64,000 bases of DNA. Origin: an uncultured bacterium. Lineage in GTDB: Bacteria; Margulisbacteria; WOR-1; CAVSGV01. The stretch covers positions 6,070-70,069 of the forward strand of contig OY969425.1 of assembly GCA_963699255.1 (NCBI GenBank). Direction: 5' to 3'. Under the pieces are notes generated by a model, which searched no databases, had not been told where the DNA came from, and saw only the letters and a list, made by a program, of their open reading frames with translations. Shown one piece after another: positions 2,498-46,456 of this stretch. The translations under genes were made by a program, and so were the position numbers. The number at the start of each line of letters is the position of its first letter. Positions within the stretch are counted from its first letter, which is position 1.

Positions 2498-5200
2498 ATG
2501 ATGATGAATGTTTCAAAAATGACTTTAGGGACAAGACAACCGGGTTTGAACCATCCTGTCAGTTATCGGGGGAGGATCCTTTCGCTAATTTCTCCTGAAT
2601 ATGCAATTCACCCGGATTCAGAAAAAATTGGAAAGATCATACATAATATAGCCCTCTGGCACGCAAGTATCGGAATAAGGACAAATGTTATAATCCCGTA
2701 TTCCAGTAAACTTGATAACATTAATTGGGACCAGATCACATATAACCATCCGCATAATTTCTGCTATAAGGAATATGAGGGCATTCCTGTTTTCGCGATC
2801 GGGAAAGACAAGCCTTTTTCTAATGTAATTCCGCCTAAAGAAACCGGGTATGCCGATCTGATCCATTTTGGGGACGCATTATTATATTTTATGAATCTGA
2901 ACGACTACAGCAATCATCCAACGGCCTTATTGCATTTCTTTGATTATCCCATGGGGATCGCCATGGACTACATCAGCAAACAACTTAAAGGGAACCCAAT
3001 TGCGAGTAATATGATCTTTTCACCAATGGATCCGCAAAGAAACTTTCATAAATACAACATGGGAGGAATGGGAGTCGGCATGGAAAAAGTGGATGGGCTC
3101 GAAATGGGCGCTAATGTTGCGCATAGCGTCATGTTCTGGTCGGATAAGTTTTACAAGGAGCTTCAAGGTAGTCATATGTTCTACGAATTCCTTAGGGTAA
3201 CTGGCGACAAAGCGGTTAAGTTGCCCGGTAGCTGGCAGCCTAATGTATTGGATAATATCTCGGAAAAAACATTAAGAGAGATGCAGGAAGTATATATGGG
3301 CACGTTATATAAAAAAGGGATAGATAGGTCAATACATTTTATGACTGAACCGGACACGAAAATGTTCATGGACAAGGTTTACTACTTCATTCCCGAACCC
3401 TCAGACATAGCGAAACCTTCCAGAAAAATAGTGCTCAAAGATGCTTTAAGGCATGTCGCAAGTGACCTGGACAATATAATTGTCGGTGGACTCAGAGGAG
3501 TGAAGATACTTGGCGGAGGAAGGGACAAGGATGTGTTCTACGATTACTGGGAGAATCTGGGAGGTTTAACCGCTCTTCTGGAACAGGTCATAGTGGATAA
3601 CCGGGGGAGAGCGGACGTTGATGTAAAGGGAGCAAGATACCTTCTTTTGGCAGATGCGGGAGATTTTAAAAGAGGCGGGGTAATGGCCCAGGCGCTAGGA
3701 ATTGAAGCTCTAAAAAGTTTGACGCCGGAAGGGGAGAACACACTTGGCATTAATTGTATCAAACAGGCTCCGATCTTTTTCCGTCAGCTGCCTGATCACG
3801 GGAAGGGGTGGATAGTTTTTTCCGCTTCGGACAATAAATGGCTGCCGGATGGTTCGCCAAAAACGGGGAAAAAATATTTATGGGAGTCAAAGTCCAAGAT
3901 AATCCTTACCGGGAAGCCGGCCGCCAATGTGGAGGCTGTAAAAGGCCTGGGTTGTTGGGTCGCTGATGAAGCCGGAAAGATCCAATTGTTCGCGGAGAAA
4001 GCTTCGCCGGATGTGGTTAAAAACGCCTTGGATAACCTGGGATTGGCAGAGGAAGATATAAACTTGAACCCTTTCGTTTTCGCGATCAAATACGATATTG
4101 CTGAAAAAATAGTGAACTTATACAAGGATACGCCATGCAAGAAGGACGGAAAAGCTTTTGTGACCACGTATCCCCTGGATATTTCGAGCCATTTTATTTT
4201 CCCGACAACGCTTAAAAAGGGGGAATGGCAAAGGATATACGAGATATTACAGCAGGTCAGAAAAGGCAAGGTGGCTGATGAGGTTTATGATGAAGCTACC
4301 GAGAACGGGTTAAATCTGGTCGCGATAGCGAAAGGGATGAAAAAGTTTGAAAAAGAGAGGATAGGGCAGGTATTTGATAATCTGGAGGATTGGATGATGA
4401 TATATGAGATGGCGCAGAAAATAAAACTTGATGCAAATGATATCGCGGGAGCAAGCATCGGGCCGAATTGCCAGTGGAATGATTACGGGACCCTTGAAGA
4501 AATGATCGAAAAGATGTGGATGGCGGCTTTTGATAACAAGGAGCAGGTCAGATCTGTCGCAAGAAGAAGAACAGGGTTTCCTGAGGACAACAACGATATG
4601 AGCGTTGATATGGAACAAATCAAAACGTATGTAACATTCATTGATCCAGTAACCAATGATGTCATGGATCTCGAGGACGGGGAAATTCCGGAAAAGGTGA
4701 TAATACAAGATGTTAATTTTGATCATCCGGTCCAGATCGTTGCCGATAGAGTGATATTGCATGATGTTGTACTGGGAGAGGGAGTGAAAAGGATACCGGC
4801 GAATACCATCATTTCCAGAGGGGAAATAGATGAGCTGGAAGAAGCTCCCGACCAACCCAAAAGAATATCGCATCAGCCGGCGCTAATATTCAATTGTCAT
4901 AAAAAGGGCAAGGTCATTGTTTACAGAGGCATGGCACACGCATCCCTTAGTCTTGCGTATGTTGATAATGCGGATCTTATCGCACAGGGTTTACATGCAT
5001 CAGAAACGCCGCTGGCGTTAAGCCCCATATATTTCGATCTTAAGGAGGAAATCTTGAAACAGAACAATTATCAACTGTATCCCGGCATTAATCTGCTTGA
5101 ACCGGGACTGAACATGCTGGATCAGTCGTTCATCATAGAAGATGAAAATGGCAAGCCGAAGCTTTTGGGCCTGAACTTTTTCCAGGTCAAGAGCGATTGA
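2498..5200 (+). CDS. large hypothetical protein, paralog A (900 aa)
   Basis: Long ORF. It is collinear with the next gene along its whole length, with shared motifs HNFC, HFFDYPMG, FSPMDP, ADAGDFKRGG, WESK/NAKII, FVTTYP.DIS.HFIFPTTL, YRGMAHASLSL and YPGINLLEP. No recognisable domain. Confidence 0.7.
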   Translation: MMMNVSKMTLGTRQPGLNHPVSYRGRILSLISPEYAIHPDSEKIGKIIHNIALWHASIGIRTNVIIPYSSKLDNINWDQITYNHPHNFCYKEYEGIPVFAIGKDKPFSNVIPPKETGYADLIHFGDALLYFMNLNDYSNHPTALLHFFDYPMGIAMDYISKQLKGNPIASNMIFSPMDPQRNFHKYNMGGMGVGMEKVDGLEMGANVAHSVMFWSDKFYKELQGSHMFYEFLRVTGDKAVKLPGSWQPNVLDNISEKTLREMQEVYMGTLYKKGIDRSIHFMTEPDTKMFMDKVYYFIPEPSDIAKPSRKIVLKDALRHVASDLDNIIVGGLRGVKILGGGRDKDVFYDYWENLGGLTALLEQVIVDNRGRADVDVKGARYLLLADAGDFKRGGVMAQALGIEALKSLTPEGENTLGINCIKQAPIFFRQLPDHGKGWIVFSASDNKWLPDGSPKTGKKYLWESKSKIILTGKPAANVEAVKGLGCWVADEAGKIQLFAEKASPDVVKNALDNLGLAEEDINLNPFVFAIKYDIAEKIVNLYKDTPCKKDGKAFVTTYPLDISSHFIFPTTLKKGEWQRIYEILQQVRKGKVADEVYDEATENGLNLVAIAKGMKKFEKERIGQVFDNLEDWMMIYEMAQKIKLDANDIAGASIGPNCQWNDYGTLEEMIEKMWMAAFDNKEQVRSVARRRTGFPEDNNDMSVDMEQIKTYVTFIDPVTNDVMDLEDGEIPEKVIIQDVNFDHPVQIVADRVILHDVVLGEGVKRIPANTIISRGEIDELEEAPDQPKRISHQPALIFNCHKKGKVIVYRGMAHASLSLAYVDNADLIAQGLHASETPLALSPIYFDLKEEILKQNNYQLYPGINLLEPGLNMLDQSFIIEDENGKPKLLGLNFFQVKSD

Positions 5201-5265
5201 TGCTGTTTAAAGGAAATGCGGAATTTTAAGATCCGGAGTTTGTCAAGTTTTTAGGAGGACTTATC

Positions 5266-7962
5266 ATGGACAGGCTAACAAGGACATCAGGAACAATGAG
5301 CCATCCTATCAGTTATCAGGGAAGGACCGTCTGGCTCGTTTCTCCCGAGCACATTATCCATCCGGGATGCGGGAAAATGGGGAAGATCGTACATGAGATA
5401 GCTCTGTCGAACACAAAAGCCGGAACAAATACCAATATAATAATTCCATATTCGGAGAAACTGGCTGATGTTAAATGGGACGTAAGTACGCGTAATTATA
5501 CTCATAATTTTTGCTTTAGGAAGGTTGATAATATTAGCATTTTCGCGGTCGGACGCGACCAGCCCTGGTCCGAGGTGGTGCCGGCTCAAGATAAATACTA
5601 CGAGTATGTACAATTTGCGGACGCGCTGAATTATTTTATTCATCTGCACGCTTTTACGCAAGATCCCGCCGCGATCATGCATTTCTTTGATTATCCCATG
5701 GGTTTTGCTATGAGCAATCTTAAGAGCACTCTAAGATATAATGCGAACAATTCTGATCTGATGAACAATATAATATTTTCGCCAATGGATCCGCTTAATT
5801 TTAACAAACGATATAATACAGGCGACCTTTATAACATAGACGGACTTGAATCGGGCGCTAACGCGGCGCATAAAGTGATGTTCTGGTCAGAGAAATTCTA
5901 CGATGATATCAAACGAAGCAATAGGTTCCCGGAGTTTTTAAGCGCGGCCAGCGGCAAAGAGGATATTATGCCCGGCGGCTGGCAGCCCAGAATGACGGAA
6001 ACGATCCCTCAGGTAACGATACGGGGGATGCGGGCGGGGTACATGGACACATTGTATAAAAGCGGGCTTGATCGCTCGTTCCATTTTATGGCAAGACCAG
6101 GCGTAAAAATGGACAAAGTTTTCTATTTCATTCCTGAACCATCCGATACAGGGAAACCTTCCAGGAAATCTGTGATCAGAAAGTCGTTAAGACGCGTCGA
6201 GAATGAAATGGATAGTATAGTAAAAAATGGCATAGACGGAATTAAGATGCTTGGCGGAGGAAGGGACAATGTGTTCTACGATTACTGGGGGAACCTGGGG
6301 GGATTGGTCGCTTTTCTTGAGCAAATGATGATTGAGAACACGACCAAAACGGAAGATGAAATAAAAAATGCCAGATATCTTTTCATGGCTGATGCCGGGG
6401 ATTTTAAGAGGGGCGGCGGAATTGCCCAGGCAAAAGGAGTGGAAGCTCTAAAAAGCATGACGCCGGAAGGGGATCGCACGCTCGGAATTAACTGCATTTT
6501 GCAGGCCCCCGTCTTTTTCCGGCAGCTGCCGGATGACGGAAAAGGATGGATAGTATACACGGCTTCGGACAATAAATGGATCCCCGACGGCACGCCAAGA
6601 ACGGGCAATAATTATTTGTGGGAATCAAACGCTAAAATTATCATCAGCGGGCGGCCGGCCGCAAATGTGGAAGCGGTAAGAGGACTGGGTTGTTGGATCA
6701 CCGATAAATTCGGCCAGGTCATATTTTTTGCCGAGAAAGCATCGCCGGAGGTGATCAGACACACCTTAAATAAGTTAGGCCTGAAGGAAGAAGATCTGTG
6801 CCTGAACACGTTCGTGTGGGCCATGAAATACGATCTTGCCAAAAAGATAGTGGATCTATATAAGAATAAAAAATGCAAGAAGATCATGAAGGGCAAACAA
6901 GAAGCAAAATGTTTTGTGACCACGTATCCTATGGACATTTCAACTCATTTTATCTTCCCGACAACTCTCACCCGGGCAGAATGGGAAAAAACATACGAAA
7001 TATTGCAGTATGTTAGAGCGAAAAAGGATACCTCCAAATTCAGCAATGAATTTACCGGACGCGGGCTAAGCCTGGTTGAGGTGGCGAAACAAATGAAAGG
7101 ATTTGAAAAAGAGGGGCCGGGCACTGATCAGGTCTTTAATGATCTGGATGATTGGATGACCATATATGATATGGCGAGCATTATTAACGAGGATGCAAAC
7201 GGCATAGATGGAGCGAATATCGGGAAGAATTGCCTGTGGAACGATTTCGGAGACCTTAAGAGTATGGTTAATGAAATGTATTTTGAAAATTTTTCAGACA
7301 ATGAATGGGCCAGAAAAGCCGAAAGAACGAGATCGGGATACCCTCTGGATAAGAACACTCAGAATGTTGACATGAATGAGATCAGGGACTATGTGAAATT
7401 CATAGACCCGGAATCCGGCAAGCCTATGCAGCTTGCCGAGGGGGAGATACCTGAAAAGGTGATATTAAATAATGTGAGCTTTGATCATCCTGTTGAAATT
7501 GTCGCTGACAGGGTAATATTGGATGATGTAAAGCTTGGGAAAGGGGTCACAAAAATACCGGCAAATACTATCATTGCCAAAGGAGAAATAGAGGATCTGG
7601 AAGAAGCTCCAGATCAGTCCGAAACACTTTCGAAGATGCCGGCATTGATATTCAATTGCCATAAAAAAGGCAAAGTACTTGTTTATAGGGGCATGGCACA
7701 TGCGTCTCTTAGCCTTGAATATGTCGACCAAAAAGATCTCAACGAGCAGGGTTTATCACCCTCTGACACGCCACTGACATTAACTCCCATCCTTTTCAAT
7801 TTAAAAGCACCCATTAATGAGCAAGACGACTATATACTGTACCCGGGAATTAATCTGCTTGAACCAGAATTTAGCATGTTAGAGCAGTCGTTCATCATAG
7901 AAGATGAAAATGGCAAGCCGAAGCTATTGGGCCTGACCTTTTTCCAGGTTAAGGGCGACTGA
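5266..7962 (+). CDS. large hypothetical protein, paralog B (898 aa)
   Basis: Tandem paralog of 2498..5200. A GGAGG RBS precedes the ATG. The last ~40 nt of coding DNA are almost identical to paralog A. Confidence 0.7.
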   Translation: MDRLTRTSGTMSHPISYQGRTVWLVSPEHIIHPGCGKMGKIVHEIALSNTKAGTNTNIIIPYSEKLADVKWDVSTRNYTHNFCFRKVDNISIFAVGRDQPWSEVVPAQDKYYEYVQFADALNYFIHLHAFTQDPAAIMHFFDYPMGFAMSNLKSTLRYNANNSDLMNNIIFSPMDPLNFNKRYNTGDLYNIDGLESGANAAHKVMFWSEKFYDDIKRSNRFPEFLSAASGKEDIMPGGWQPRMTETIPQVTIRGMRAGYMDTLYKSGLDRSFHFMARPGVKMDKVFYFIPEPSDTGKPSRKSVIRKSLRRVENEMDSIVKNGIDGIKMLGGGRDNVFYDYWGNLGGLVAFLEQMMIENTTKTEDEIKNARYLFMADAGDFKRGGGIAQAKGVEALKSMTPEGDRTLGINCILQAPVFFRQLPDDGKGWIVYTASDNKWIPDGTPRTGNNYLWESNAKIIISGRPAANVEAVRGLGCWITDKFGQVIFFAEKASPEVIRHTLNKLGLKEEDLCLNTFVWAMKYDLAKKIVDLYKNKKCKKIMKGKQEAKCFVTTYPMDISTHFIFPTTLTRAEWEKTYEILQYVRAKKDTSKFSNEFTGRGLSLVEVAKQMKGFEKEGPGTDQVFNDLDDWMTIYDMASIINEDANGIDGANIGKNCLWNDFGDLKSMVNEMYFENFSDNEWARKAERTRSGYPLDKNTQNVDMNEIRDYVKFIDPESGKPMQLAEGEIPEKVILNNVSFDHPVEIVADRVILDDVKLGKGVTKIPANTIIAKGEIEDLEEAPDQSETLSKMPALIFNCHKKGKVLVYRGMAHASLSLEYVDQKDLNEQGLSPSDTPLTLTPILFNLKAPINEQDDYILYPGINLLEPEFSMLEQSFIIEDENGKPKLLGLTFFQVKGD

Positions 7963-8037: not shown

Positions 8038-11000
8038 ATGGTAGAACGCACTAGGGACATAAGCCATCTGCCTGTAGCGCGGTTCAATTCGCGTTCATGC
8101 GGGATCACGTCAAAAATACCCTCAATTAAAGCCGGCCGTGATGTCGTATCGTCGACTAAAAGAATATTGATCATGTTCAAGCCGGATTGTCTGGCGTACG
8201 GAATGGTCCCGGAGACGCTCCAGCTTTTAAAGAAAGGGCTTGACCGCGAAAAGATAGATGCCCGTTTTGCAGGTCTGGTCCTCCTTAATTTAACGCCTCA
8301 GCTGACGGACAGGATATATGCGGAACATGTTGGAAAGGATTGGTACGAAGGACTATTCAAACCATTCATGACCGCAAAGCACCCGAACGAAAAAGCTGTT
8401 CGTGCCCCGATCATCGCGGCAATGCTGGAAGTAAGAAATGACGCCAGCCGGGATGTTGTCAGCGTGATAAGGAAGAACGTCATCGGCCCCACCGATGTAG
8501 AAGAGTACGAAAATAAAGATGAAATAAAGGACACATTAAGATACAAACTGATACTGGAAAAAGGATTGTTAACATGGCCGTTCCCGGAGGATCCCAAAGG
8601 CCCGAATTACAACAGGATACATTGTTCTGCAAATGAAAAAATCGCGGGAGATGAACTTTACCCGGTTTTTGGCATAAAAGGCATTTTGTCCAAACTTTAT
8701 GAACCGTCCGCGGTAAAGGATGTTCTGTCAGGCTGGAGCCAGCAGGGTTATGCCGATGTCCCCGGCGTGATCAGGATACCGATTCATGAGTATCTTGGGG
8801 CTGATCCGGTGATCTTTTCCAGAAAGATCATCAGGGCCTTCAGTGACAATGGATGCGTATATAAGGACTTTGATGAGATCAAGGCTGAACAATTGATAAG
8901 GTCATTGAATGACATGCGGGAGATGATCCAGGGCCAGGAGTTTTTTTTTAACAAGGTAACCTCTTCGATCGACCCCACAGATCCCATAAATCCTTTAAAA
9001 CCAAGAGTTGTAGCAATATTTGGCGCCCCCGGAAGCGGAAAAACCACCATTTCAGACATATTAAAGAATAAAGGCGTCGTTTCCATTCTGCCTTTGACCG
9101 TGAATGAAGAAAGAGAAAAAAGCGGAGCGACGGAATATGAGCTCAGATCAAAGACCGAAATATTGCGGATGATCCGGGAGAATGAATTCGTCGGATGGGA
9201 AATCCTTGCCGGCAATTATTATGGAATATCAAAACGGACCGCGGAAATGATCCTGAGATCTTCCGGCAAAACTTTCGCTCTGCTGGCCGGGCCAACAATT
9301 GTTTATCCATTAAGGGAAGCGCTCAAGGGGAAAGCGGACTTTTATCAGGTGATGTTCAAAGTGCCCCCGAATGACCTTGCTTCAAGGATCACAAAACGCG
9401 CGACCGTCCGGGACAGGGAAAGGGGCATCGCTTTATCCCTTGAGACTCAAAAATGGATGGAGGAAAGTTTCGGGAATTTCGACCTCATAACGGAAAACCC
9501 GAACAGCGAAAGTGAAACGGCGGCGGCTCAAAAGCTGATCGATTTTCTGGCCAAGCCCCAAAACGTAGAATTCGACCGCAAAAAAGAAGCTTCAACTCTG
9601 GCGGCTACTTATCCATATAATGCCGTGGAAATGTTCAAGGACCAGAGACAGAGTTTCAGTAATAAGGATATTGTAACCCTTGAAAAACAAGTCATGTCCC
9701 TTGTGGGGACTACAATTGAAGCTATGTACCGCGCGGTCAGGAGCTCGCTTCCCGCGGAGACGGACCTGGGAGTCGAATTCAATGAATTTTTGTCCGGCTT
9801 GATATTGCATACCGCAAAAGTACTGGTCGCCGGTATTCAGCTTAGATCGTTCCAATATGAAGATATTACCGCGAGCCCGATCAAGTTCGGCAGGATAGGA
9901 CTGTGCAGCTCAAAAGAAAGGGCGGATAAACTTTATAAAAAGCTCAAGGATATCCAGAACAGGATGCCTCTTGAAGAAGAAATGCTTTTTGATCTTGTTC
10001 ATGATATCGGGAAAATGGAGAACATCATACAACATCCCGAAAAAGGTTATGAAATAGCGAAAAGGCTGAAAATGTTCGAAGGGTGGGGGGTTGAAGGGAT
10101 AGACACCGATGTCGATCTTATTGCCATAAAATGCTCGCATCTTATCGGCTCGTATATGTTGCCGGATAATTCGCTTATTGCCGTGGCAGATGAACTTTCC
10201 CATAAGGATGTGAAGAGCGTTCTTGCCAGGAAGGACGGGAGCGTGGACATGGAACGCATGAAAAACTTCCTGGAAAAGATATGTTTTTTCCCGTCCAAGG
10301 ACGCATCCGGATACAAGGATGGATGGTTGTTAGTTCTGTTCTCTGAAGGGTATTTTGCCTTTGGAGAATGGCTTTATTCCGTATTCAGCAGGAATTCGGA
10401 TAATTACGATAACGCGATAGCTGAAATTAAAAAGAGCAGCGCCGGGTCTAATATGGACAGGATAGCAAAGTGCGTTGCCATGGAGGATGCGGATGCCGAT
10501 GTCAACGGGCGAACATTCGAATATTACAGGGACAATATCGTAATGCCGAACGTCCGGGCCTGCGTTGATGAATGGGTATTCACGCAAAAAGACTGGGATC
10601 TGGTCGTGGGGAACCTCCATCATATAAGTAAACTCCGTTATTCAACGAACCTGATATGCGATTCCCTGCAGTGGATAGGGGCAAAAGGCGAAAAGATCGA
10701 GGACCTCAATAATTACAGGAATATGTTCAAGCTTTTCGTGATCATGGCTAAATCGCTCATCGCATTCTCAAAGGATCCATCGCGGCCCGGCGATTTTGAG
10801 TTCAGGTTCACATATGACGACGGCAAAGAGATAATGGGCCCGAAGAATTGGGGGCCGGCAATGGACTTTTGTAATGACCAGCTGGATATTTCAACCGGCG
10901 ATATTGAAAAAGTCGGCAACAGCATATCAATCGTTCCCAAAGAAAAAAGCAAGCTGCCGAACGTGGAAATTACCGAAGAAATCGTGGATGGATGCAGGTT

Positions 11001-11052
11001 GATCTCCTTCAAGCTTAAAGGTTATTCAGGGCAAAATCCCGCTTCAAAATAG
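8038..11052 (+). CDS. multidomain protein with NDK-like, guanylate-kinase-like and HD-phosphohydrolase domains plus a C-terminal region of unknown function (1004 aa)
   Basis: Residues ~40-180 read ILIMFKPDC...FAGLVLLNLTPQLTDRIYAEHVGKDWYEGLFKPFMT...APIIAAMLEVR, an NDK-like fold in which I cannot find the HGSD catalytic His. Residues ~330-490 have the P-loop AIFGAPGSGKTT, then TVNEEREKSG, GNYYGISKRT and LAGPTIV, matching GMP kinase. Residues ~590-700 have H...LVHDIGK, an HD motif. The start is uncertain; ATG at 8174 (MFKPD) is an alternative. Confidence 0.7.
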   Translation: MVERTRDISHLPVARFNSRSCGITSKIPSIKAGRDVVSSTKRILIMFKPDCLAYGMVPETLQLLKKGLDREKIDARFAGLVLLNLTPQLTDRIYAEHVGKDWYEGLFKPFMTAKHPNEKAVRAPIIAAMLEVRNDASRDVVSVIRKNVIGPTDVEEYENKDEIKDTLRYKLILEKGLLTWPFPEDPKGPNYNRIHCSANEKIAGDELYPVFGIKGILSKLYEPSAVKDVLSGWSQQGYADVPGVIRIPIHEYLGADPVIFSRKIIRAFSDNGCVYKDFDEIKAEQLIRSLNDMREMIQGQEFFFNKVTSSIDPTDPINPLKPRVVAIFGAPGSGKTTISDILKNKGVVSILPLTVNEEREKSGATEYELRSKTEILRMIRENEFVGWEILAGNYYGISKRTAEMILRSSGKTFALLAGPTIVYPLREALKGKADFYQVMFKVPPNDLASRITKRATVRDRERGIALSLETQKWMEESFGNFDLITENPNSESETAAAQKLIDFLAKPQNVEFDRKKEASTLAATYPYNAVEMFKDQRQSFSNKDIVTLEKQVMSLVGTTIEAMYRAVRSSLPAETDLGVEFNEFLSGLILHTAKVLVAGIQLRSFQYEDITASPIKFGRIGLCSSKERADKLYKKLKDIQNRMPLEEEMLFDLVHDIGKMENIIQHPEKGYEIAKRLKMFEGWGVEGIDTDVDLIAIKCSHLIGSYMLPDNSLIAVADELSHKDVKSVLARKDGSVDMERMKNFLEKICFFPSKDASGYKDGWLLVLFSEGYFAFGEWLYSVFSRNSDNYDNAIAEIKKSSAGSNMDRIAKCVAMEDADADVNGRTFEYYRDNIVMPNVRACVDEWVFTQKDWDLVVGNLHHISKLRYSTNLICDSLQWIGAKGEKIEDLNNYRNMFKLFVIMAKSLIAFSKDPSRPGDFEFRFTYDDGKEIMGPKNWGPAMDFCNDQLDISTGDIEKVGNSISIVPKEKSKLPNVEITEEIVDGCRLISFKLKGYSGQNPASK

Positions 11053-11102: not shown

Positions 11103-12536
11103 ATGAGTGAAATTCGCTTTAACCCGAGAATGCCGCGCGTAGAGAACGCTGTTTTGCAGCCGAAAAAGCTGTCAAACGGAACATCCGCGCTTTATTTCAG
11201 CAGATCGCTCCCGTATAGCGATCCCAATAACGCGAGAGAACTGATAGATAACAAGCTTTTTTATCTGTCGGCGCAGAGGTTTGATGTCTTCGCGTGTTTC
11301 TCGGGGCACATGTCCAGAAAGCCCGCCATTTTACAGGAAAGCGTGAACCGATTTGCATCCCGTTTTAGAGAAAGAAACAAGGTGGTCATAAAGGAACTTG
11401 GAGCGGGATCCGGGGACAGCATGGCAATCGTGCTTGGCGATGTAAAAAAGAGATATTCTCCGCTGTACAAGAAATTGTCCGCGTATGCTTCCGACGGGTA
11501 TGAACCGGTTTGTGAAGCAATGAAAAGGTCAAAGCAGCTTCGACAATTCATTTCAGAAAATAAATTGGATATTTTACGGGAGGACCTGTTGGAAGATCTC
11601 CACGGCCAGAAATTAGCCGATTATGTTCGAGTGAGTTATTCTCTCTCGGACCTTCCGGAAGATATCGTGAAGAAAGAAAACGGAAGGTTTTACGCGGCTG
11701 ATGTAAGAGGATATATTACCGGCAAAGAGGGCTTTAGAACGCAAGACAATGAAAATATCCCTGTCAAATATATTGCCGGTCTGTTAAGCGAAGGAAAGCT
11801 GCAGGAGATCATAGACCTGGGACTGGACATACGCGACATAAAACCCAGAGTGGGATTTGATGTCAAGTATGCGCCTATGGATTTCGCCGTCATGACCGAC
11901 GGCGGTCTGGTCAGGAATATACTGGAGCAGATCACGGCTGGTATGGGAGATACCAAGCTCAGGACGGGATTGAACGCGGCAAAAGCGGTCGAAAAAATAT
12001 TGAACAATCATCTCAGGCCGGATGTTGGATCATATATCGAGGCGTTCGATGTGTGGACATCAGAGATCATGCCGCATGCGCACATCCCTTATACGGCCCT
12101 TGATCTTACTTCGGCATACAGCGTGAACCTGCCTTTCATCAAGGCGTATTTTGAAGCCAAAAAGACGCCGATAGATGTGGGATTCGAGGACTGGAAGAGA
12201 TACATAAATCTGACAGAGCCGTATATCGATCTGTCGCATTTTTCAAGATGGCTAAAGGGCAGCGGAGCGGAGATCGATTCGTTCTTCGGGCGGCATATTC
12301 CGGCAAGAAGCGTGAGCATGGTCGTTGACTTCCTTAAAAGGACGCAACATGTTGCTGATATGGTTTTATATTCCGAAAAGCAGGCTCATCCATTTATCCT
12401 GGTCCTTAATAACGCGGGATTCACTGAGAAGGAAAAAGAAATGTTATTCATCAGCGGAAAATTCCCGGAGACCGTTAATACAAAAACAAAAGGTTATTTC
12501 GGGCTTTATCAGGTCGTTACCATCAAAAACATATGA
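11103..12536 (+). CDS. hypothetical protein, possible Rossmann-fold SAM-methyltransferase-like (477 aa)
   Basis: AAGGAAG RBS. VIKELGAGSGDSMAIVLG resembles MTase motif I, with an acidic residue after the next strand (AYASDGYEP). Assignment is weak. Confidence 0.5.
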   Translation: MSEIRFNPRMPRVENAVLQPKKLSNGTSALYFSRSLPYSDPNNARELIDNKLFYLSAQRFDVFACFSGHMSRKPAILQESVNRFASRFRERNKVVIKELGAGSGDSMAIVLGDVKKRYSPLYKKLSAYASDGYEPVCEAMKRSKQLRQFISENKLDILREDLLEDLHGQKLADYVRVSYSLSDLPEDIVKKENGRFYAADVRGYITGKEGFRTQDNENIPVKYIAGLLSEGKLQEIIDLGLDIRDIKPRVGFDVKYAPMDFAVMTDGGLVRNILEQITAGMGDTKLRTGLNAAKAVEKILNNHLRPDVGSYIEAFDVWTSEIMPHAHIPYTALDLTSAYSVNLPFIKAYFEAKKTPIDVGFEDWKRYINLTEPYIDLSHFSRWLKGSGAEIDSFFGRHIPARSVSMVVDFLKRTQHVADMVLYSEKQAHPFILVLNNAGFTEKEKEMLFISGKFPETVNTKTKGYFGLYQVVTIKNI

Positions 12537-13587: not shown

Positions 13588-15162
13588 TTGGATTACGCGG
13601 TCAGCGTCATTAAGAACCAATTTGACAATAAAACACTGAAGGCCGGAGACAGCATTGACCTGATGAAATACCTTAAATTGCGCGGCAATTCTATGGTCCT
13701 TTGCGGAGCGCAATGGGGCGATGAAGGAAAGGGAAGAATGGCTTACCTCATGGCTTCCTTATTGGGAGCCAAAGCCGTGGTGAGATTCAACGGCGGGCCG
13801 AACGCGGGGAAAGTGGTGGAGGCTGAAAATGGAAGGGTCTTTGAATTGTGCATGCTGCCTGCCGGCGCTCTCAACCCGGACGTGGAAATATACATGGCTC
13901 AGGGAACGTACATCAACCTCAAGTATCTTCTAAAAGAGATTGACGATCTAGAGGCAAACAAAATATCCACCAGGAGGAGAGTGTTCATTGATGACAATTG
14001 CAGTTTGGTCCTTCCGTACTACGAAGAATTAAGCCGGGCAAAAAATATGGAGCGTTCAAAGGCCATATCTTTTAATGCAGGAATGGGAGAAGGAAGCACC
14101 GGCATGGGAATGGGCGGGGCGGTGGAAAGTAATGATATGCGCCGGGGCATTAAAGTCCATGATCTGTTCGGCGATCCCAAGCAATTACTCTCCAAGATAA
14201 CTAAAGATTTGATTTTGCAAGAATATAAGATCAGGGGATTGCTATTGATAAATAATGATAGCTGGCGTTTTCCTGAAAATTACGCAAAGAACCTTTGTGA
14301 TGACCTGTTGAAAATGGCGGGAGAGATCAAGCATATGAGGGCGAATGTAGGCCGAAAGATAGAAAGAACGATTCTGGCCGGCGGGAACATTGTTTTTGAA
14401 GGCGTCCAGGCGGCGCTTCTGGATAATGCCTGGGGCACATATCCAATTAATACAACATCCACCAAAACAACACCAAATAGCATTTATGATGGTTTGAACC
14501 TTGATTCAAAATATATGCTGACAAAAGTGGGTATCGTCAAAAGTTATACTGCCGTAAGAGGGAAGACCCCGCTTCCTACCGAATTAACCGGGGCAGAAGG
14601 TGATAAATTAAGTGAAGCGGGAAATGAATATGAGGTCAGTTACAAGATAGATCCAGAAGGCACCTTAATAACGGTTTATAATCCCGACGGGAAAACGATA
14701 GCTTATGATAAAAGCAAGCGTATCGCTGTGGGGTGGCAGGATGCCCTGGTTCTTGCAGAGTGCGCAAAGACAGGATTCACGCACTTCGCGCTCACAAAAC
14801 TGGATGCTCTGGACGGCTTCGATGAAATAAAGATCGCGACAGCGTACAAATACGAAGGCGATCAGGAATTAAACCCTAGTATTTATGAGGTCGAAGAACA
14901 CGACGAGGCAACTTTCATCCGATCATATGTCAAAGACCCGAAAGTACTTAAACACTGCACGCCGATCTATGAGACACTCCCCGGGTGGGCGTCCGAACTT
15001 AAAAAAAGAGGGCTTGCATCAATTTCGGAGATAAAAAAGTTTGAAGATCTTCCTGCCGCGGCGCAGAACTATGTGAAACGAATAGAAGAGATTCTGGGGC
15101 GTCCGATCGTATTTGTCTCTGTCGGCCCCAAAAAGGACCAATATATTGAAAGAAAATACTAG
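13588..15162 (+). CDS. adenylosuccinate-synthetase (PurA)-family ligase, divergent, with a remodelled active site and a ~100-aa insertion
   Basis: The P-loop CGAQWGDEGKG, VVRFNGGPNAGKV (GHT replaced by GKV), LLDNAWGTYPINTTST, TKLDALDG and SVGPKKD all align to PurA. The Asp-binding GATTGRRRR loop is replaced by VSYKIDPEGTLITVYNPDGKTIAYDKSKRIAVGW. The annotated start is TTG; in-frame ATGs at 13663 and 13693 are alternatives. Confidence 0.8.
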   Translation: MDYAVSVIKNQFDNKTLKAGDSIDLMKYLKLRGNSMVLCGAQWGDEGKGRMAYLMASLLGAKAVVRFNGGPNAGKVVEAENGRVFELCMLPAGALNPDVEIYMAQGTYINLKYLLKEIDDLEANKISTRRRVFIDDNCSLVLPYYEELSRAKNMERSKAISFNAGMGEGSTGMGMGGAVESNDMRRGIKVHDLFGDPKQLLSKITKDLILQEYKIRGLLLINNDSWRFPENYAKNLCDDLLKMAGEIKHMRANVGRKIERTILAGGNIVFEGVQAALLDNAWGTYPINTTSTKTTPNSIYDGLNLDSKYMLTKVGIVKSYTAVRGKTPLPTELTGAEGDKLSEAGNEYEVSYKIDPEGTLITVYNPDGKTIAYDKSKRIAVGWQDALVLAECAKTGFTHFALTKLDALDGFDEIKIATAYKYEGDQELNPSIYEVEEHDEATFIRSYVKDPKVLKHCTPIYETLPGWASELKKRGLASISEIKKFEDLPAAAQNYVKRIEEILGRPIVFVSVGPKKDQYIERKY

Positions 15163-20706: not shown

Positions 20707-23700
20707 ATGAGCGACCCACTTAATAAAATATCCGGTTCCGGCAGCACGAACAATATCAAAAAAGACGTAAAGCCGGAAAATAAAAAGAAAAAGGATGAAA
20801 ACATGGATGTTTCTGTAACGTTCATCCCATACGGGCCGGATTACGCGGAAGTGGCGGATTGCGCGTTCGTGTTCAATCCAGCGCAGTATATGGCGCAGCA
20901 TCAGATAACCGGGAAAACCAACAAAACGGATGTGTCAGAGGAATCCAGGCTTTTTGTGGCAAATTTCTTCAAGAGCGGCAAGGAAAGCGTGGATAACGCG
21001 AACTTAGAATCCAAAACTAATTTTGTTGCTCCGATCGTTAGCCCCGAACCGTTCATAAGACCGTTCATAAACTCGGCGGTCCCGGATAAAACGTACGTGT
21101 ACAACGCGGCGCTGGACGCGGTGCAACGCGAGGAACAAGAACAGTTCGGTAGCTTCAATGCGAAGGTAAAGCCGGTGGAAGGCAAATGCTTACTTGGAGC
21201 TTGGTTCGGAGTTTCCCCGGATGAAAATAATTCAAAATCTATTTTCGCTGTCCCTACTGTTGTCAGGAGCGTTACTTTTGACCATTCAGACCTGGAAGCC
21301 CTAAAAAAGGAAAATCTGGCCAATCTGAAGACCATGCTGGAGAAAAAAGGGTATACAGGCAAAACGGCCCTAAAGCCTGAAAAAATAGATTTTATCAAGG
21401 CGCAATTGACGCCATATATCTCTTTGGACCTGGATTCCGCGAAAGATATAACCGCAGATATCCCGATCGAGATGAAGACCGTAAACAAGAAAATATCGAC
21501 CATGGAAGATTACAGGAAGAAAAGGGATGATTTTGCCGCCCTGACCGGCAAGGCCCCGAAAATAGAAATGATGTTCGAAGTGTGGAGCGATACCTGGACA
21601 TACAATCCATTCCCGGCGGCTTTTTGCACGGAAGTTGACCAGCATGGTCATATCCCGATGGTGACATGGGGACCTTCGGGGCTGCCGTTCAACCCGACGG
21701 ATGACAAAAGCACTTACCTGGATGAATTCAACAAGCAGCTCGCGAATAAGCACGGCGAAATTTATGAATACGCGAAAAATTGGGCCGAGGAGGCAAAGGA
21801 ATACGGGAAGCCGTTCTTGCTGAGGCCGTTCCATGAAATGAACCTGCAGGACAACTGCGAATGGACGGCGTGGATGAACGGAGGAGAAAAAGGAATAGCT
21901 AAATTCAAGAAAGCATGGCAAAACCTGTATACATTATTCAAGGAAGTGGGGGCGGACAACGCCACATTCGTCTGGTGCCCGAATACCAGGGGATATCCGC
22001 TAGAAGATTGGAACAGTAAAGCGCGGGATTACTTCCCCGGCGCCGAATATGTGGATTGGCTGGGCGTTGACGGATATCTGAAGTCCGAGATCAAGACAGG
22101 AAGCGAATTTCCGAGATTCGCCACGGTTTTTGGGGCCACGATCGGGAAATCGACCGTTCCAAAAAGCAGGATTGTCGGTATTTTTGGAGCGAAAGATATG
22201 TCCTGGCGCCAGTATTTCGTCGATCCGGACGATAAGGACATTCTTTTTAAGCCTGATATTGAAAATGAATTAAGAAAACAGGCGAATCCCGGCAAGGACA
22301 CAAAAGCGGACCCGGTTAAAGCAGAAAGGTCACGCAAGCTGCTTAAAATTTATGATGAGATCCCCGAGTTGAGCTTATTGTCCAAACAATACCATAAGCC
22401 TTTGATGATATGTGAAACATCTTCAAGGCCGGACCTGTACAAGGCCGAATATTTCACGCAATTATTTGGCGCTGCGAAAGCATACGACCTGAGCGCGGTG
22501 GTCCTGTTCAACCAGAACAAATTAGGGATGGGCGGAAGCGCAGAGGATGACTGGCTTATTGACGCGCCGATCAAGGGCGAAAAGGAAGAGCTTAGTGCCG
22601 AGGCGCAAATACAGCTTGATCAGGCAGCGCGCGAATCCAAAGAGGCGTGGCAATATGTATTCGATCATCTTAAGGATATGGGTTTACCCGAGCCCACAAA
22701 GGTTTTAGTTGCCCCGGAAAGGAATCCGGTGCTTGAAACATTCAGGAATATCGGGAATGACGGTTCCCTGCTGTTCGACCCAAAGGGAATATCGGTCAAT
22801 AAAATAGGAGTGAACAACGAAACGCCGCAGGATATCAAGATGCCGGAGCGGGAAAAAGATCTGAACATAAAAATAAGAAAGCGCAACACCGAGCTGAAAA
22901 TTTATCCGCAGGACATTGATATAAGGATGAAGGTGGGGGAGTATCAGGAAGAACTTTCCGGCTACCAGTACCTTAAAGTAATAAATGAAAAAATCGATCC
23001 TAAGGAGGTCCTGAAAAAGATAGGCGAACAGCATCAGCTGGCCATAAATGAACTTAAAAAAGTGCCCGGATCGGACCGCAATTACCTGAAAGCGCGCGCT
23101 GCAATGAAAGAAATCTACGCCTCATGGGATTCTGACGATAAAGACCTGAAAAAGTACTACAGGGATCAAGCGAAAAAGATATCCCTGGAAATAATAGCAT
23201 TGACGAAAGACGAAAAATACATCAAGCCTTTTAGCAATAAAACGGCGCTCAAATTCTTTGACCCCGGGTATACAGAAAGGGAGCTGCTCGGGATGAGGGC
23301 TTCCGCTCATGTGACGATAGCGGACATTTACGCGGAATGGTCCGAAAAGGAAAATGCGAAAAAAGAATATACAGAAGCTTTGAAGATCCTGAAAAACGAA
23401 GAATTCCAGAGAAGCGCGTATAAAGACAAGCTGGCGAATTCAAGCGCGGAATACCGGCAGGAAAAACATTATCCGGACGCTGGCAGGGACTTTTTGGAGG
23501 CGTGCGTTTATCCGGTGAACTGGCTTACCAGGGATAAGGACAAGGACCTGAAGACAAGCATCGCGATCGGCATGGCGAAAGTGAAGACCCTTGATACTAA
23601 AGACACAAAAACCTTTGATGAAGGCATTGAAGAGCTGAATAATATCGCTTACAAAACTTTCGGCGTAAGCCCAAGGCTTGTATTAAAGGCAAAAGTCGAG

Positions 23701-23892
23701 CTCGCGTACGCGCTAGCCAACTACGCGTTAATAGCGAAGAAAGTGAAAGACAAGGATCCGGCACTTTACAACAGTTATATGGCCAAGGCAATGCAGTCGT
23801 TCGTTATCGCAAGGGGACTCTTTGCCACGGAATACGCCTACAAGGCCGGCAAACTGATAGATGACCTCACGGCGACCCTGATCAAACAATAA
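20707..23892 (+). CDS. GH26-like glycoside-hydrolase domain protein with a C-terminal TPR-like helical region (1061 aa)
   Basis: LLRPFHEMNLQDNCEWTAWMNGGE, FVWCPN, YVDWLGVDGY and MICETSS resemble the GH26 acid/base and nucleophile regions. The C-terminal ~350 aa are helical repeats. Confidence 0.55.
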   Translation: MSDPLNKISGSGSTNNIKKDVKPENKKKKDENMDVSVTFIPYGPDYAEVADCAFVFNPAQYMAQHQITGKTNKTDVSEESRLFVANFFKSGKESVDNANLESKTNFVAPIVSPEPFIRPFINSAVPDKTYVYNAALDAVQREEQEQFGSFNAKVKPVEGKCLLGAWFGVSPDENNSKSIFAVPTVVRSVTFDHSDLEALKKENLANLKTMLEKKGYTGKTALKPEKIDFIKAQLTPYISLDLDSAKDITADIPIEMKTVNKKISTMEDYRKKRDDFAALTGKAPKIEMMFEVWSDTWTYNPFPAAFCTEVDQHGHIPMVTWGPSGLPFNPTDDKSTYLDEFNKQLANKHGEIYEYAKNWAEEAKEYGKPFLLRPFHEMNLQDNCEWTAWMNGGEKGIAKFKKAWQNLYTLFKEVGADNATFVWCPNTRGYPLEDWNSKARDYFPGAEYVDWLGVDGYLKSEIKTGSEFPRFATVFGATIGKSTVPKSRIVGIFGAKDMSWRQYFVDPDDKDILFKPDIENELRKQANPGKDTKADPVKAERSRKLLKIYDEIPELSLLSKQYHKPLMICETSSRPDLYKAEYFTQLFGAAKAYDLSAVVLFNQNKLGMGGSAEDDWLIDAPIKGEKEELSAEAQIQLDQAARESKEAWQYVFDHLKDMGLPEPTKVLVAPERNPVLETFRNIGNDGSLLFDPKGISVNKIGVNNETPQDIKMPEREKDLNIKIRKRNTELKIYPQDIDIRMKVGEYQEELSGYQYLKVINEKIDPKEVLKKIGEQHQLAINELKKVPGSDRNYLKARAAMKEIYASWDSDDKDLKKYYRDQAKKISLEIIALTKDEKYIKPFSNKTALKFFDPGYTERELLGMRASAHVTIADIYAEWSEKENAKKEYTEALKILKNEEFQRSAYKDKLANSSAEYRQEKHYPDAGRDFLEACVYPVNWLTRDKDKDLKTSIAIGMAKVKTLDTKDTKTFDEGIEELNNIAYKTFGVSPRLVLKAKVELAYALANYALIAKKVKDKDPALYNSYMAKAMQSFVIARGLFATEYAYKAGKLIDDLTATLIKQ

Positions 23893-34546: not shown

Positions 34547-34984
34547 TTGGTCAGGAAGGATAATATGCGCATAAAAAATTTATTGATAGGGTTAATGACG
34601 GTAATGCTGACGGCGATGCTGTCATCTGCCGCGTTCGCGGTGCTGGATCCCGCGTCAGGCACTTCAACCCCGAACGGTGATTTTATTTTTGTCCCCAACC
34701 AGACGAACACCGCGTCGATAGAGGTAGTAAGGACGTCCGATGATGCTGCGGTGCAGGCGATCAACGTTGCAAGCGGAACCCCGGCCAGCATGGCGACTTC
34801 CCCGGACGGAAAAACCCTTTTTGTCGTCGTTGCCGGAGCTACAGGAAGCAGGGTAAGGGCCTACAGCATAGGTTCCACAGAGCCTTACTTCTTTATCCTA
34901 TACGGTACTGAGCTCCACCTACACCGCAGGAAGGCAGTGCGCCATCACCCCCGACGGAAAATACCTTTATGTGGCGAACTATGA
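34547..34984 (+). CDS. N-terminal fragment of the giant protein (signal peptide plus YVTN-like beta-propeller repeat)
   Basis: MRIKNLLIGLMTVMLTAMLSSAAFA is a signal peptide. The frame of 34971..43685 is open from 34872 and reads …STYTAGRQCAITPDGKYLYVANYDD, which continues the same repeat type. A -1 shift near 34880-34895 is implied. Confidence 0.45.
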   Translation: MVRKDNMRIKNLLIGLMTVMLTAMLSSAAFAVLDPASGTSTPNGDFIFVPNQTNTASIEVVRTSDDAAVQAINVASGTPASMATSPDGKTLFVVVAGATGSRVRAYSIGSTEPYFFILYGTELHLHRRKAVRHHPRRKIPLCGEL

Positions 34985-37900
34985 TGATTCATTCGCGGGC
35001 GCAGGCAGGAGGGTTTACATACTTGATGTTTCAAATCCTTCAGCAATGACCGTTGCGGGCAGTTTCCAGGTCGCCGCTTCGGATTCCACGGTCAACCTCT
35101 GGGGAATAGCCATAAAACCGGACGGCACAAGGCTTTATGTGGGAGACAGGTACAACTACTACGGTTATTACAAGGTGTGCGTCTACAACATAGCGGGTGC
35201 GAACAGAACAAGTCCCCAGCATGTTACGGACATAAACCTTGGCACGACCAAGAACCCGACCTATCTTGCCGTGAATACGGACGGGAACAGGTTATTCGTG
35301 AAAGTGGATGAGACAGCGGATCCGGGCGACGGCGCCAGAAAAGACGTTGAAATGTACGATATTTCAGGCCCCACGCCTGTGCTTATGGCGGAGGTTTATA
35401 AGATAACGGGAAATAATTACAGAAGCTACCTTCCCGGGGACCATCTTCCAACCGGCAACGATCTGGACACGAGGAACGGCAGCGAGGGTATGGCATTAAG
35501 CCCCAACGGCTGGTTCATGTATTTTTCAAATTTTAACGGGCCTTCCGGCGACGGGAGCCTTTACTATCGGGATACTTTATACGGCTCTTCGATCGCTAAT
35601 TTAACGAACGGTTTTGACAGGACAAATCCGGGGGACATCTGGGTAAGCTGGGGCGGATGCACACAGGAGTCCCCGGCCATCTGGAGCGGATGGCATTCTT
35701 CCGACGGCATCATCGCCACAAGAAACAATAAAGTTTATTTTACTTACAGCGATGTAAGCGTGACCCCGGAATATCTCAGCGTGCCGACGACGACCGACGC
35801 GAATATTCCCCCGACAGCGCCGAAAATAACCTATCCTCTGCCGCAAGCTACTAATGTTTCCGGTTTCATTACCTGGGAGCCTTCGCTGGATGACGGCATC
35901 GGTCCTCACGGATTAACATACACCGTTGAAACCATAGAAGCTTCGACTCTGGAAGGCGGAACAACCGCCTGGAATCACATGGCTTACACCGCGACGGGCG
36001 AGGTATATACGCCTCTTATCGGAGTCAAGCCCGGCGGAACGTATTATGCCAGAGTGCAGGCTTTTGACGGCACATATACCAGCCCATGGTCCTATACGGG
36101 GCCGTTCACCATGGATGCCAATTTCCTTTTGCCACCCACATGGGAGAGCTCTTATCTGATCACATCCAGAGAAGCGGTGATCGACTGGGCAAGTGTTGCG
36201 GCGGCCGACAGTTACATTATCCAGTATAGGATAACAGGCGAAGCGACCTGGCACAGCACGTCTGCTATAGCAAGCACATACAGGTATAATTCGACAGATC
36301 CAAATCCGAACTATAGGCTTACGAACCTTACTCCGAGCGCGACCTATGAGGTGAATTTAATCGCGGTTAGGAGCGGGGTCAAAAGCGTCCCGTCTTCAAA
36401 GCCTTATGTTTCTTTCTACACGCTGGAAGAGCCGTGGGTGAGCCACGCCAGGGTCACGTCGACAGAGGCATATATATTGTGGGGACCTGAGGTAAGCACA
36501 TTGGAGCTGAATGTTCCGAACGCTGTCAATTATGAATGCTGGTACAGGATACAGAATGCGCCTGTGGACTGGACAAGAGTCACATGGCCTTCCGGAAAGC
36601 AGGACAGTACAACAATGACAGTGTTGAACGCCAAGCTGAGCGGCTTAACGGCGTCCACCACATATGAGGTCAGGATGAGGACCGTAGATGCATATGGCGG
36701 GCGCTCTCTCTGGTCGCCAATTCATGATGTGTACACGATGGAGCGGCCGTGGGTGAGCCACGCAAAGGTCACATCAACAGAGGCGTATATATTGTGGGGA
36801 CCCGAAGAAAGCACTTCTTTTAATATACCCAATGCCGCCAGCTATCAATATCAGTATATGAAGAAAACGGATACCTCATGGACCACCGGTCCCGAGCCTC
36901 TCAGCAAGAGAGACGATGGAACTATGCCCGTATTGAATTTTAAGCTGAGCAATTTAACGGCGTCAACCACATATGAAGTTCAGATGAGAGCGTTGGATGT
37001 CTATGGCCGCACTTCCGACTGGTCAGCGACGGATGAAGTGTATACTCTTGAGAGCCCGTGGGTGAGCCACGCCAAGACGTCAACGAACGAATCGTACATA
37101 TTGTGGGGTTCCTCGACGAGCTTTGAAGTTAGGAACGCCACTACCTACGAAGCAAGAGCCAGAATAACATCCAGCGCTTCGTGGGATGCGGTCCCGATCA
37201 AAGGGGTGCCTCGATATAATCGCGATGACGGCACCATGTCGCCGACGTTAAACATCAAATTAAGCTCGTTGCTCGGATTTACTCCGATAGTAAACACTAC
37301 ATATGAGGTCAGGATGAGGGCGAGAAATGCCGGCGGAGCATCTGACTGGTCCGCCACAAATGAAGTGTATGTGCTGGGGACCCCGTGGGTAAGCGCCGCG
37401 AAGGTCACATCGAAAGAGGCGTATATATTGTGGGGGCCGGTAGGCGAGACCGGGCTGGATGTGACCGGAGCTACAAGTTATCAGTGCTGGTACAGGGTGC
37501 AGAATGCGCCTGTGGACTGGACAAAGGTCACATGGCCTGTCGGCAAGCAGGACGATAGGACAATGGCAACGTTGAACGCCAAGCTGAGCGGCTTAACGGC
37601 GTCCACCACATATGAGGTCCAGATGAGGGCGGTTGGATCAGGAGGATACTCTGACTGGTCGCCTATCTATGATGTGTTCACATTTGAGCGGCCCTGGGTG
37701 AATCATGCGAACGTCAAAGCGACAGAAGCATACATATTATGGGGGCCTGAAGAAAGCGCTTCTCTTAATATACCCAATGCCGCCAGCTATGTGTATCAAT
37801 ACAGGAAGCCGGCGGATACTTCATGGACCAGCGGTCCCGAGCCTCTAAGCAAGCAGGACGATGGGACCATGCCCGTGTTGAATTTTAAGTTAACGGGCTT

Positions 37901-43685: not shown

Positions 43686-43710
43686 TTTTATAAACGGGAG
43701 GAAGATTTTT

Positions 43711-46423: not shown

Positions 46424-46456
46424 GTGAAATTTATCCAGCGATCGGTCGATAATAAT
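46424..46456 (+). promoter_or_regulatory. recurrent promoter-like motif, distal copy
   Basis: gtgaaatttatccagcgatcggtcgataataat. Confidence 0.35.

Follow-up and report, generated by a model that had tools for sequence, protein, structure and literature searches.

Tandem gene copies that have diverged along their whole length and yet end in almost the same DNA raise the question of what keeps the shared end alike: selection on the encoded protein, exchange between the copies, or a signal in the nucleic acid itself. Such a pair, genes A and B, lies near the start of a 64,000-nucleotide (nt) stretch of DNA (hereafter, the window) from an uncultured bacterium of the GTDB lineage Margulisbacteria; WOR-1; CAVSGV01 (assembly GCA_963699255.1, contig OY969425.1, positions 6,070 to 70,069 of the forward strand). 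A preliminary description of the locus had pointed to concerted evolution or to strong selection on a C-terminal module, and had assigned neither product to a recognised family. Here, we conclude, with somewhat better than even confidence, that the most likely account of the 3' identity is a short gene-conversion patch on top of purifying selection. A and B themselves are probably soluble cytoplasmic enzymes, in which known folds occur in an undescribed combination.

The near-identical 3' ends of genes A and B

The two genes and the relevant parts of their 3' regions are the following (aa, amino acids; ORF, open reading frame).

2498-5200, + strand: gene A, encoding a cytoplasmic three-module protein of 900 aa; the upstream, slower-evolving paralog (from the ORF listing and translation)
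5266-7962, + strand: gene B, encoding an 898-aa paralog; the downstream, faster-evolving copy
5078-5104, + strand: YPGINLLEP block of gene A (counterpart in gene B, 7840-7866), a 17-nt exact match and a second patch with genome-specific shared states
5123-5197, + strand: tail of gene A (QSFIIEDENGKPKLLGLNFFQVKSD), aa 876-900, containing the 41-nt exact repeat 5123-5163
7885-7959, + strand: tail of gene B (QSFIIEDENGKPKLLGLTFFQVKGD), aa 874-898, containing the 41-nt exact repeat 7885-7925

The two products align end to end, with 57-58% amino acid identity (BLASTP) and 68% nucleotide identity in the codon alignment, confirming that the genes are diverged collinear homologs; gene B is preceded by a ribosome-binding site (AGGAGGA, 5253-5259). 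In what follows, W denotes the copies in the window (W_A, gene A; W_B, gene B) and L-numbers denote the loci of relatives; orthologs of gene A were found in L001, L004, L005, and L095.

The near identity of the coding 3' ends, noticed in the preliminary description, holds up to measurement, and the tails quoted there, YPGINLLEP...QSFIIEDENGKPKLLGL.FFQVK(S/G)D, agree with the translations. At its core is a 41-nt exact run, CAGTCGTTCATCATAGAAGATGAAAATGGCAAGCCGAAGCT, the longest shared by the two genes (the second longest is 25 nt), with no further occurrence in the window at up to 3 mismatches. The genes agree at 75 of the 80 bases that extend from the start of the run to the second base after the stop codon; beyond that point, the intergenic sequences bear no resemblance to each other. 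Over the best 15 consecutive codons, nucleotide identity is 98%, compared with 68% overall, and identity at the 3' end is thus higher than elsewhere in the pair.

Most of this identity is explained by 17 consecutive identical amino acids in the tails. Synonymous choices, too, agree to an unusual extent: across A and B, the same codon is used at 57% of identical degenerate residues, and in the tail at 20 of the 22-23 identical residues, against a same-codon background of 0.51-0.57 and with 13.3 expected from per-residue rates (local P = 0.0012). For the run of 13 identical codons, a simulation that kept the real pattern of identical residues gave a gene-wide P = 0.005; a Fisher test of the tail against the upstream 200 codons gave P = 0.001, and W_A-W_B was the strongest outlier among 28 pairwise tail comparisons (P = 0.001). 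The synonymous excess in the tail is real but modest.

Constraint on the tail peptide

The motif QSF[IV][IV]ED..G...LLG[LM].F is kept in every member of the close clade of relatives, where 11 of the 25 final positions are invariant. A further fragment from another organism has the C-terminus QSFIIEDEDGKPKLLGLNFFQVRGD, and a 25%-identical relative ends in ...FTFFDLRGGN; the leading strand of the tail, Q-[SP]-[FI], can still be aligned in homologs of 20-25% identity whose ends differ. The structure was predicted with AlphaFold2 (AF2) from an 18-sequence alignment, yielding a model with a predicted local distance difference test score (pLDDT) of 89 and a predicted template modelling score (pTM) of 0.87, which supersedes an earlier, poor model from 5 sequences (pLDDT 50). 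In this model, the tail has a pLDDT of about 90 and forms strands at residues 879-881 and 887-889 and a helix at 894-898. The motif occurs on no other ORF in the window and, in the databases, on family members only.

The last 25 residues are, then, among the most conserved and well-ordered parts of the fold in the close clade, and the strong selection on a C-terminal module that had been suggested is borne out. Because the tail is conserved in the close clade, confidently structured, and absent from the other ORFs of the window, it appears, in the model, to be part of the fold and not a detachable tag.

Probable gene conversion and its alternatives

Along the tail, W_A and W_B are 93% identical in nucleotides, compared with 84% for the A orthologs W_A and L005_A, whereas upstream the order is reversed (70% versus 72%); the tails of the tandem pairs in L005 and L004 show no comparable identity (73% and 53%, respectively). 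In a four-taxon analysis, all 5 parsimony-informative sites at residues 876-893 place the copies of one genome together (Fisher P = 0.008), whereas the last two codons group by orthology; at residues 862-886, there are 8 genome-grouping sites, 1 orthology site, and 1 other. Over the whole gene, genome-grouping sites number 73, compared with 35 in the alternative homoplasy class (P = 3e-4). Among rarely used codons, W_A and W_B share TCG and ATA, whereas both L005 copies share TCT, ATT, GTT, and GGG instead. Genome-specific codon bias is not supported as the source of these shared synonymous states, given that codon usage is similar in the W and L005 genomes.

The account that we favour has two layers. 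Very strong purifying selection on the tail peptide would produce most of the identity, and a short conversion patch between the tandem copies, formed in this lineage, would have erased the synonymous differences. The patch would measure 41 nt or more, up to about 100 nt, and would stop before the last two codons; its 3' boundary follows from the grouping of those codons by orthology. Of the earlier suggestion of concerted evolution, the local form has moderate support (the synonymous excess and the 5:0 distribution of sites by genome). The ongoing, whole-gene form is rejected, given that the A orthologs cluster across genomes (100% bootstrap) and that L004/L095 lack a conversion signal. Concerted evolution of duplicated bacterial genes by gene conversion is known from tufA/tufB. 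As in that case, the paralogs of one genome share synonymous states that orthologs lack, but the putative A/B patch is only about 40-100 nt long, lies in adjacent genes that are otherwise 32% diverged, and has moderate statistics.

Several observations weigh against exchange between the copies. When corrected for scanning of the whole gene, the P value for the clustering of genome-grouping sites is 0.09. In L004/L095, the members of which are 92-94% identical, there is no sign of recent conversion (O 782, G 10, X 7). Furthermore, there is a third relative with a similar tail.

L096, 6-671 (1070-bp contig): family gene of the third relative; the gene for a nucleoside-diphosphate kinase-like/guanylate-kinase-like (NDK/GK) fusion starts 6 nt later

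The tail DNA of L096 matches both W tails at 89-91% identity, compared with only about 70% over the upstream 200 codons, and it uses the same codon as W_A at 19 of 22 residues (background 0.63, P = 0.02) and as W_B at 17 of 22 (background 0.60). Part of the identity between A and B could, therefore, reflect slow evolution of this stretch and not exchange within a genome.

These observations lend weight to an alternative that we consider unlikely but take seriously, namely, that no conversion occurred and that the identity results from extreme purifying selection on the tail peptide, together with shared codon preference, incomplete synonymous saturation, and chance. Within-genome conversion cannot yield the likeness to L096, and the tail peptide appears to be the ancestral form in the subclade (QSFIIEDE[ND]GKPKLLGLNFFQV). 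The 17 identical residues force most of the identity by themselves, the background same-codon frequency is high (0.51-0.63), and a cruder shuffle of same/different flags gives P = 0.13 for the run of 13. The tests that take residue type and position into account (P = 0.001-0.005) speak against this alternative, as do the outlying position of W_A-W_B in the 28 comparisons, the different rare codons shared by the W and by the L005 copies despite similar usage, and the gene-wide excess of genome-grouping sites.

A nucleotide-level element of 41-80 nt, such as an mRNA stem-loop acting in stability or processing of a polycistronic transcript or in translation of the next cistron, is very improbable. 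The 3' ends fold somewhat better than shuffled sequences, but the z-scores are weak (-2.2 and -1.7). The two ends have in common a hairpin, UUCAUC/GAUGAA, with an outer stem CAGUCG/CGAYUG in which the GAT/GAC difference retains pairing; this hairpin is, however, an automatic by-product of the Phe-Ile...Asp-Glu codons. Conservation of the tail DNA extends to L096 as well, but in the L005, L001, and L004 orthologs it is at background synonymous divergence, and the next gene begins anywhere from 6 to 76 nt downstream, depending on the locus. No Rfam match was obtained other than a spurious one to NRON at 2308-2371, and the tails contain no promoter- or terminator-like site.

Least of all do we credit the earlier suggestion of a secretion, sorting, or partner-docking tag common to a set of proteins: the extreme C-terminal position, the high conservation, and the many cell-surface proteins (fn3, SLH) encoded downstream would fit it, but A and B contain no signal peptide or transmembrane segment (maximum Kyte-Doolittle(19) score 1.1; no hydrophobic stretch at the N-terminus), their folds are those of enzymes typical of the cytoplasm (Foldseek), the tail is confidently ordered and, within the 64-kb window, restricted to A and B, and its first strand aligns with homologs that end differently.

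Domain architecture of A and B

The modules assigned to the two proteins are listed below.

2573-3352, + strand: gene A, GT5 glycogen/starch-synthase-like N-terminal Rossmann domain, aa 26-285 (family profile, PF08323 in distant homologs, Foldseek match to 3fro)
3353-3631, + strand: gene A, aa 286-378, two beta-alpha units in the modelled secondary structure, either a linker or what is left of a second Rossmann domain
3632-4492, + strand: gene A, sugar-1-phosphate nucleotidylyltransferase-like core, aa 379-665 (invariant columns, Foldseek, weak PF07959/PF00483 matches in homologs), with motifs ADAGDFKRGG (385), EALKS (403), FRQLP (428), SDNK (444), FAEKAS (498), and WNDYG (660)
4631-5122, + strand: gene A, left-handed beta-helix-like strand ladder and C-terminal cap, aa 712-875 (weak matches to hexapeptide proteins, model)
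6370-7254, + strand: gene B, nucleotidylyltransferase-like core, aa about 369-663, with the same motifs as gene A: ADAGDFKRGG (375), EALKS (393), FRQLP (418), SDNK (434), FAEKAS (488), and WNDFG (658)

Direct scans of A and B against Pfam, NCBIfam, and PADLOC gave no match even at E = 5, and a phmmer search of A against the PDB returned noise only. The preliminary statement that no family is recognised thus stands for direct Pfam and NCBIfam scans but not for profile and structure searches, which reveal a GT5-like N-terminal domain, an NDP-sugar pyrophosphorylase, and a beta-helix; the confident AF2 model, searched with Foldseek, leads to the same synthase and pyrophosphorylase folds. According to the model, the protein consists of a synthase-like N-terminal domain, a nucleotidyltransferase core, a left-handed beta-helix, and an 80-residue C-terminal cap.

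On the synthase side, the family profile matches E. coli glycogen synthase over residues 3-257 only (E = 2e-12), PF08323 (starch-synthase catalytic domain) scores above the gathering threshold in 10 of 34 distant homologs (20-25% identity), and the top Foldseek matches in the PDB include 3fro (E = 3e-10), 1rzu, 6gne, and 2qzs. The N-terminal ~260 residues thus resemble bacterial and archaeal GlgA and the plant starch synthases (GT5, GT-B), with which they have a homologous Rossmann domain in common. The resemblance does not extend past the domain boundary, after which just two beta-alpha units (residues 290-380) lead to the nucleotidyltransferase core. Unlike GlgA and the starch synthases, A and B lack a Glycos_transf_1-type donor domain; the Glycos_transf_1 model matched none of the scanned homologs. 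The segment aligned to the KTGGL motif reads SEKIGKI in A and CGKMGKI in B, with the Lys and Gly present and the motif otherwise not kept. Because the donor-binding half is missing, we do not file A and B as glycogen synthases, and, judging by these features, a classical glucan-synthase activity is doubtful.

On the pyrophosphorylase side, the Foldseek matches are led by the GDP-fucose pyrophosphorylase (GFPP) domain of bifunctional FKP (9iis, E = 9e-10) and by E. coli ADP-glucose pyrophosphorylase (AGPase, GlgC; 5l6v, E = 1e-8), together with Agrobacterium AGPase and many other AGPase chains. No other single structure matches the C-terminal two-thirds of the protein as well as 9iis does (593 aligned columns, rmsd 8.5). 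PF07959, the family to which this FKP domain belongs, is the most frequent Pfam model in that region, matched by 8 of the 34 distant homologs. A and B differ from FKP in that they have no fucokinase (GHMP) domain and different neighbouring genes. The likeness to AGPase consists in a nucleotidyltransferase core followed by a left-handed beta-helix (5l6v, 5w5t, and 3brk, E = 1e-8 to 1e-6). Identity is about 10%, however, and A and B add a large helical insertion within the core (about residues 562-645), the C-terminal cap, and the fused synthase-like domain. The beta-helix appears in the AF2 model as a strand ladder at residues 734-817; the family profile matches hexapeptide proteins (GlmU, gamma-carbonic anhydrase) weakly (E = 0.003-0.09), and the LbH_EIF2B and Hexapep_GlmU models are matched in homologs.

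Ten residues of the core are invariant in 18 homologs (G388, R392, K406, Q430, D445, N446, E500, K501, D662, and G664), and the invariant nucleotidylyltransferase residues and motifs are all identical between A and B. These columns show what we take, by likeness to RmlA and GlgC, to be the motif pattern of sugar-1-phosphate nucleotidylyltransferases: a Gly-rich loop with Arg, a Lys downstream of it, GDN-like and EKP-like motifs, and WxDxG. In an hhalign comparison with an approximate RmlA sequence, the match was weak (probability 13%), with the G-loop, Arg, and Lys in the expected places.

Some points weigh against these assignments. In addition to the failure of the direct scans, the Pfam matches of the homologs to pyrophosphorylase families lie under the gathering thresholds (PF07959 at most 29 bits, with a cut-off of 34), and PF00483 (NTP_transferase) is weak, one homolog reaching 21.6 bits with a cut-off of 21.2. 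The mapping of motifs onto the catalytic residues of RmlA and GlgC consists of the pattern and the one weak hhalign match, and the synthase-like part is without its donor-binding C-terminal domain.

Relatives, duplication history, and the paired-subunit idea

The family is very rare and unannotated: 5 matches were obtained among 5.8 billion proteins, and a profile search yielded 48 among 1.84 billion representatives. No relative was found among GTDB representative genomes, and a metagenome scan contributed one extra locus only, L095. Some distant homologs carry a fused phosphoglucomutase (PGM); in one of them, P0016 (1624 aa), the PGM is joined to the C-terminal two-thirds of the A/B family. 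In the literature, we found no description of a synthase/pyrophosphorylase fusion or of its gene cluster, the only related note being that PF08323 co-occurs with phosphoglucomutase domains in long proteins of the Omnitrophota, reported as a domain statistic only (bioRxiv 10.64898/2026.06.07.730766). The PGM fusion of P0016 is reminiscent of these proteins, whereas LeuC of the window is closest to sequences from Bacillota and Margulisiibacteriota (73-75%).

Tandem pairs recur in W/L005, L004/L095, and L090, with paralogs that are now 55-61% identical. The last of these pairs lies on a distant branch.

L090/L091, 7308-9932 and 10001-12628: tandem pair of 874 and 875 aa, 61% identical to each other, with 23% identity to A; flanked by a 618-aa NTP_transferase upstream and a PfkB-ARMT1 fusion downstream

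In the neighbor-joining tree, W_A groups with L005_A (100%), W_B with L005_B (only 53%), L004_A with L004_B (99.5%), and the two L090 copies with each other (100%). This pattern indicates at least three lineages in which tandem pairs originated, or became homogenised, independently of one another. In both lineages that allow the measurement, the downstream copy is the faster-evolving one: the W/L005 orthologs are 73% identical for A and 58% for B, and the L004/L095 orthologs 94% and 92%, respectively.

By analogy with the paralogous subunits of AGPase, A and B might form a hetero-oligomer, in which B, as we infer, would be the less constrained partner. Homo- and heterotetramers are both known among AGPases, and NDP-sugar pyrophosphorylases oligomerise through their beta-helix domains (PMC11046441); on this basis, the beta-helix together with the C-terminal tail would contribute to the subunit interface. 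As in GlgC/GlgD and in the small and large subunits of plant AGPase, the putative subunits are paralogs, encoded side by side, one of which evolves faster. Degenerate catalytic residues, which occur in one subunit of the heteromeric AGPases, are not seen in this putative heteromer; both copies retain all the catalytic motifs, unlike many catalytic/regulatory pairs, which counts against the idea.

Gene cluster and proposed function

The earlier proposal that A and B head an operon-like run that continues into nucleotide genes is upheld by the order of the cluster, which is kept in relatives. The genes downstream of B in the window are the following.

8038-11052, + strand: NDK-like/guanylate-kinase-like fusion of 1004 aa (Pfam, NCBIfam, and PDB matches)
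11103-12536: gene for a 477-aa protein of no assigned family
13588-15162, + strand: atypical adenylosuccinate-synthetase-like (AdSS-like) protein (Pfam E = 1e-92; below the NCBIfam equivalog cut-offs)

The same gene order is found in the close relatives L001-L003, L004/L095, L005, and L096. In L001-L003, a single copy of the family lies beside leuCD, as in the window. The NDK/GK fusion, which consists of a divergent NDK-like region (aa 40-210), a guanylate-kinase-like region (aa 320-495), and a C-terminal region in which inspection by eye shows an HD-like motif, 'LVHDIGK', comes after the family gene or genes in every close-relative locus and is also syntenic in L007; in L001-L003, it is split into genes of 303 and 702 aa. 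Farther downstream, L001/L002 encode the 477-aa protein, a Methyltransf_15-like protein, and an AdSS-like protein, and L095 encodes the same set minus the methyltransferase-like gene. The 477-aa gene is tandemly duplicated in L004/L095 (in L095, 17540-18973 and 18976-20409; 56% and 41% identity to the window protein).

The AdSS-like gene co-occurs with the family in L001 (13443-15269), in L095 (20459-22243), and in the distant locus L008. The protein keeps the GDEGKG P-loop and TKLD but scores below all PurA/PurZ equivalog cut-offs; GGHNAGH is changed to GG[PL]N[AS]GK, which puts Lys in the position of the catalytic His41 of E. coli PurA, and the G-TTGRxRR-GW loop is swapped for an unrelated insert of ~32 residues. 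These altered motifs and low PurA/PurZ scores make it probable that the enzyme depends on GTP but acts on another substrate.

In the distant loci, the family genes have, upstream and in divergent orientation, stand-alone genes for GH26 (in one case with CBM9) and for two ABC sugar permeases; they are also accompanied by PfkB kinases, an NTP_transferase, a guanylate-kinase-like protein, and a PGM fusion. One further homolog adjoins SemiSWEET, a polysaccharide deacetylase, and a methyltransferase. As a separate observation, a GH26-like segment (aa 276-475) is present in the window within a 1061-aa ORF (20707-23892).

Taken by gene content, this neighbourhood supports a role in sugar-phosphate or nucleotide-sugar metabolism without fixing the substrate. 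A and B would make an NDP-sugar from an NTP and a sugar-1-phosphate, the NTP being supplied by the neighbouring kinases. A defence-system reading was rejected, there being no PADLOC matches.

A more specific proposal, which we regard as speculative and improbable as it stands, is that the cluster headed by A and B makes and uses an unusual purine-nucleotide sugar through an A/B hetero-oligomer. A non-canonical NTP could come from the AdSS-like enzyme, which by its sequence would keep the GTP site without the catalytic His and the Asp-binding TTGRxRR loop, in concert with the NDK/GK fusion, possibly with an HD domain, and with the methyltransferase-like protein, similar to cap-guanine-N2-methyltransferases. 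A and B may couple this NTP to a sugar-1-phosphate derived, via PfkB and PGM, from imported GH26 substrates, and the orphan synthase N-terminal domain may hold the acceptor glycan. The pyrophosphorylase may, in that event, have replaced the donor-binding half of a GT-B enzyme, giving rise to a new kind of activating-and-transferring enzyme.

Other features of the window

Upstream of gene A, in the intergenic region between it and the divergent leuC, is a 27-nt direct repeat (2332-2358 and 2406-2432; 81% identity, 74 nt apart), possibly with a regulatory function. The stretch 34971-49183 is a very large cell-surface block. Its products carry many fn3 domains together with purple-acid-phosphatase-N-like and TIG domains (2904 aa), TIG and FlgD-Ig domains (814 aa), and five SLH repeats (862 aa), which indicates an S-layer-type envelope. 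Two pairs of ORFs overlap on the same strand, 49691-50680/50527-51834 (154 nt) and 32498-33349/33255-33878 (95 nt). In the former pair, each ORF codes for PQQ-type beta-propeller segments, suggesting that a frameshift is present or that the gene has been split.

Conclusions

The identity of the 3' ends is, in itself, a small evolutionary detail: a constrained C-terminal element, probably with a short conversion patch. The main value of the locus is the recognition of an unannotated fusion family and of a gene cluster conserved across deeply diverged uncultivated bacteria. The family is invisible to Pfam and NCBIfam and joins the acceptor-side half of a glycogen synthase to an NDP-sugar pyrophosphorylase; its enzyme activity, its substrate, and the formation of a heteromer by A and B are what we infer from these comparisons. 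Should the activity and the heteromer prove true, A and B would represent a new architecture in sugar-nucleotide and polysaccharide metabolism, and a function would be assigned to more than 15 kb of 'hypothetical' genes. Should they not, the pair would still provide a clean case of short-tract concerted evolution between 32%-diverged neighbours.

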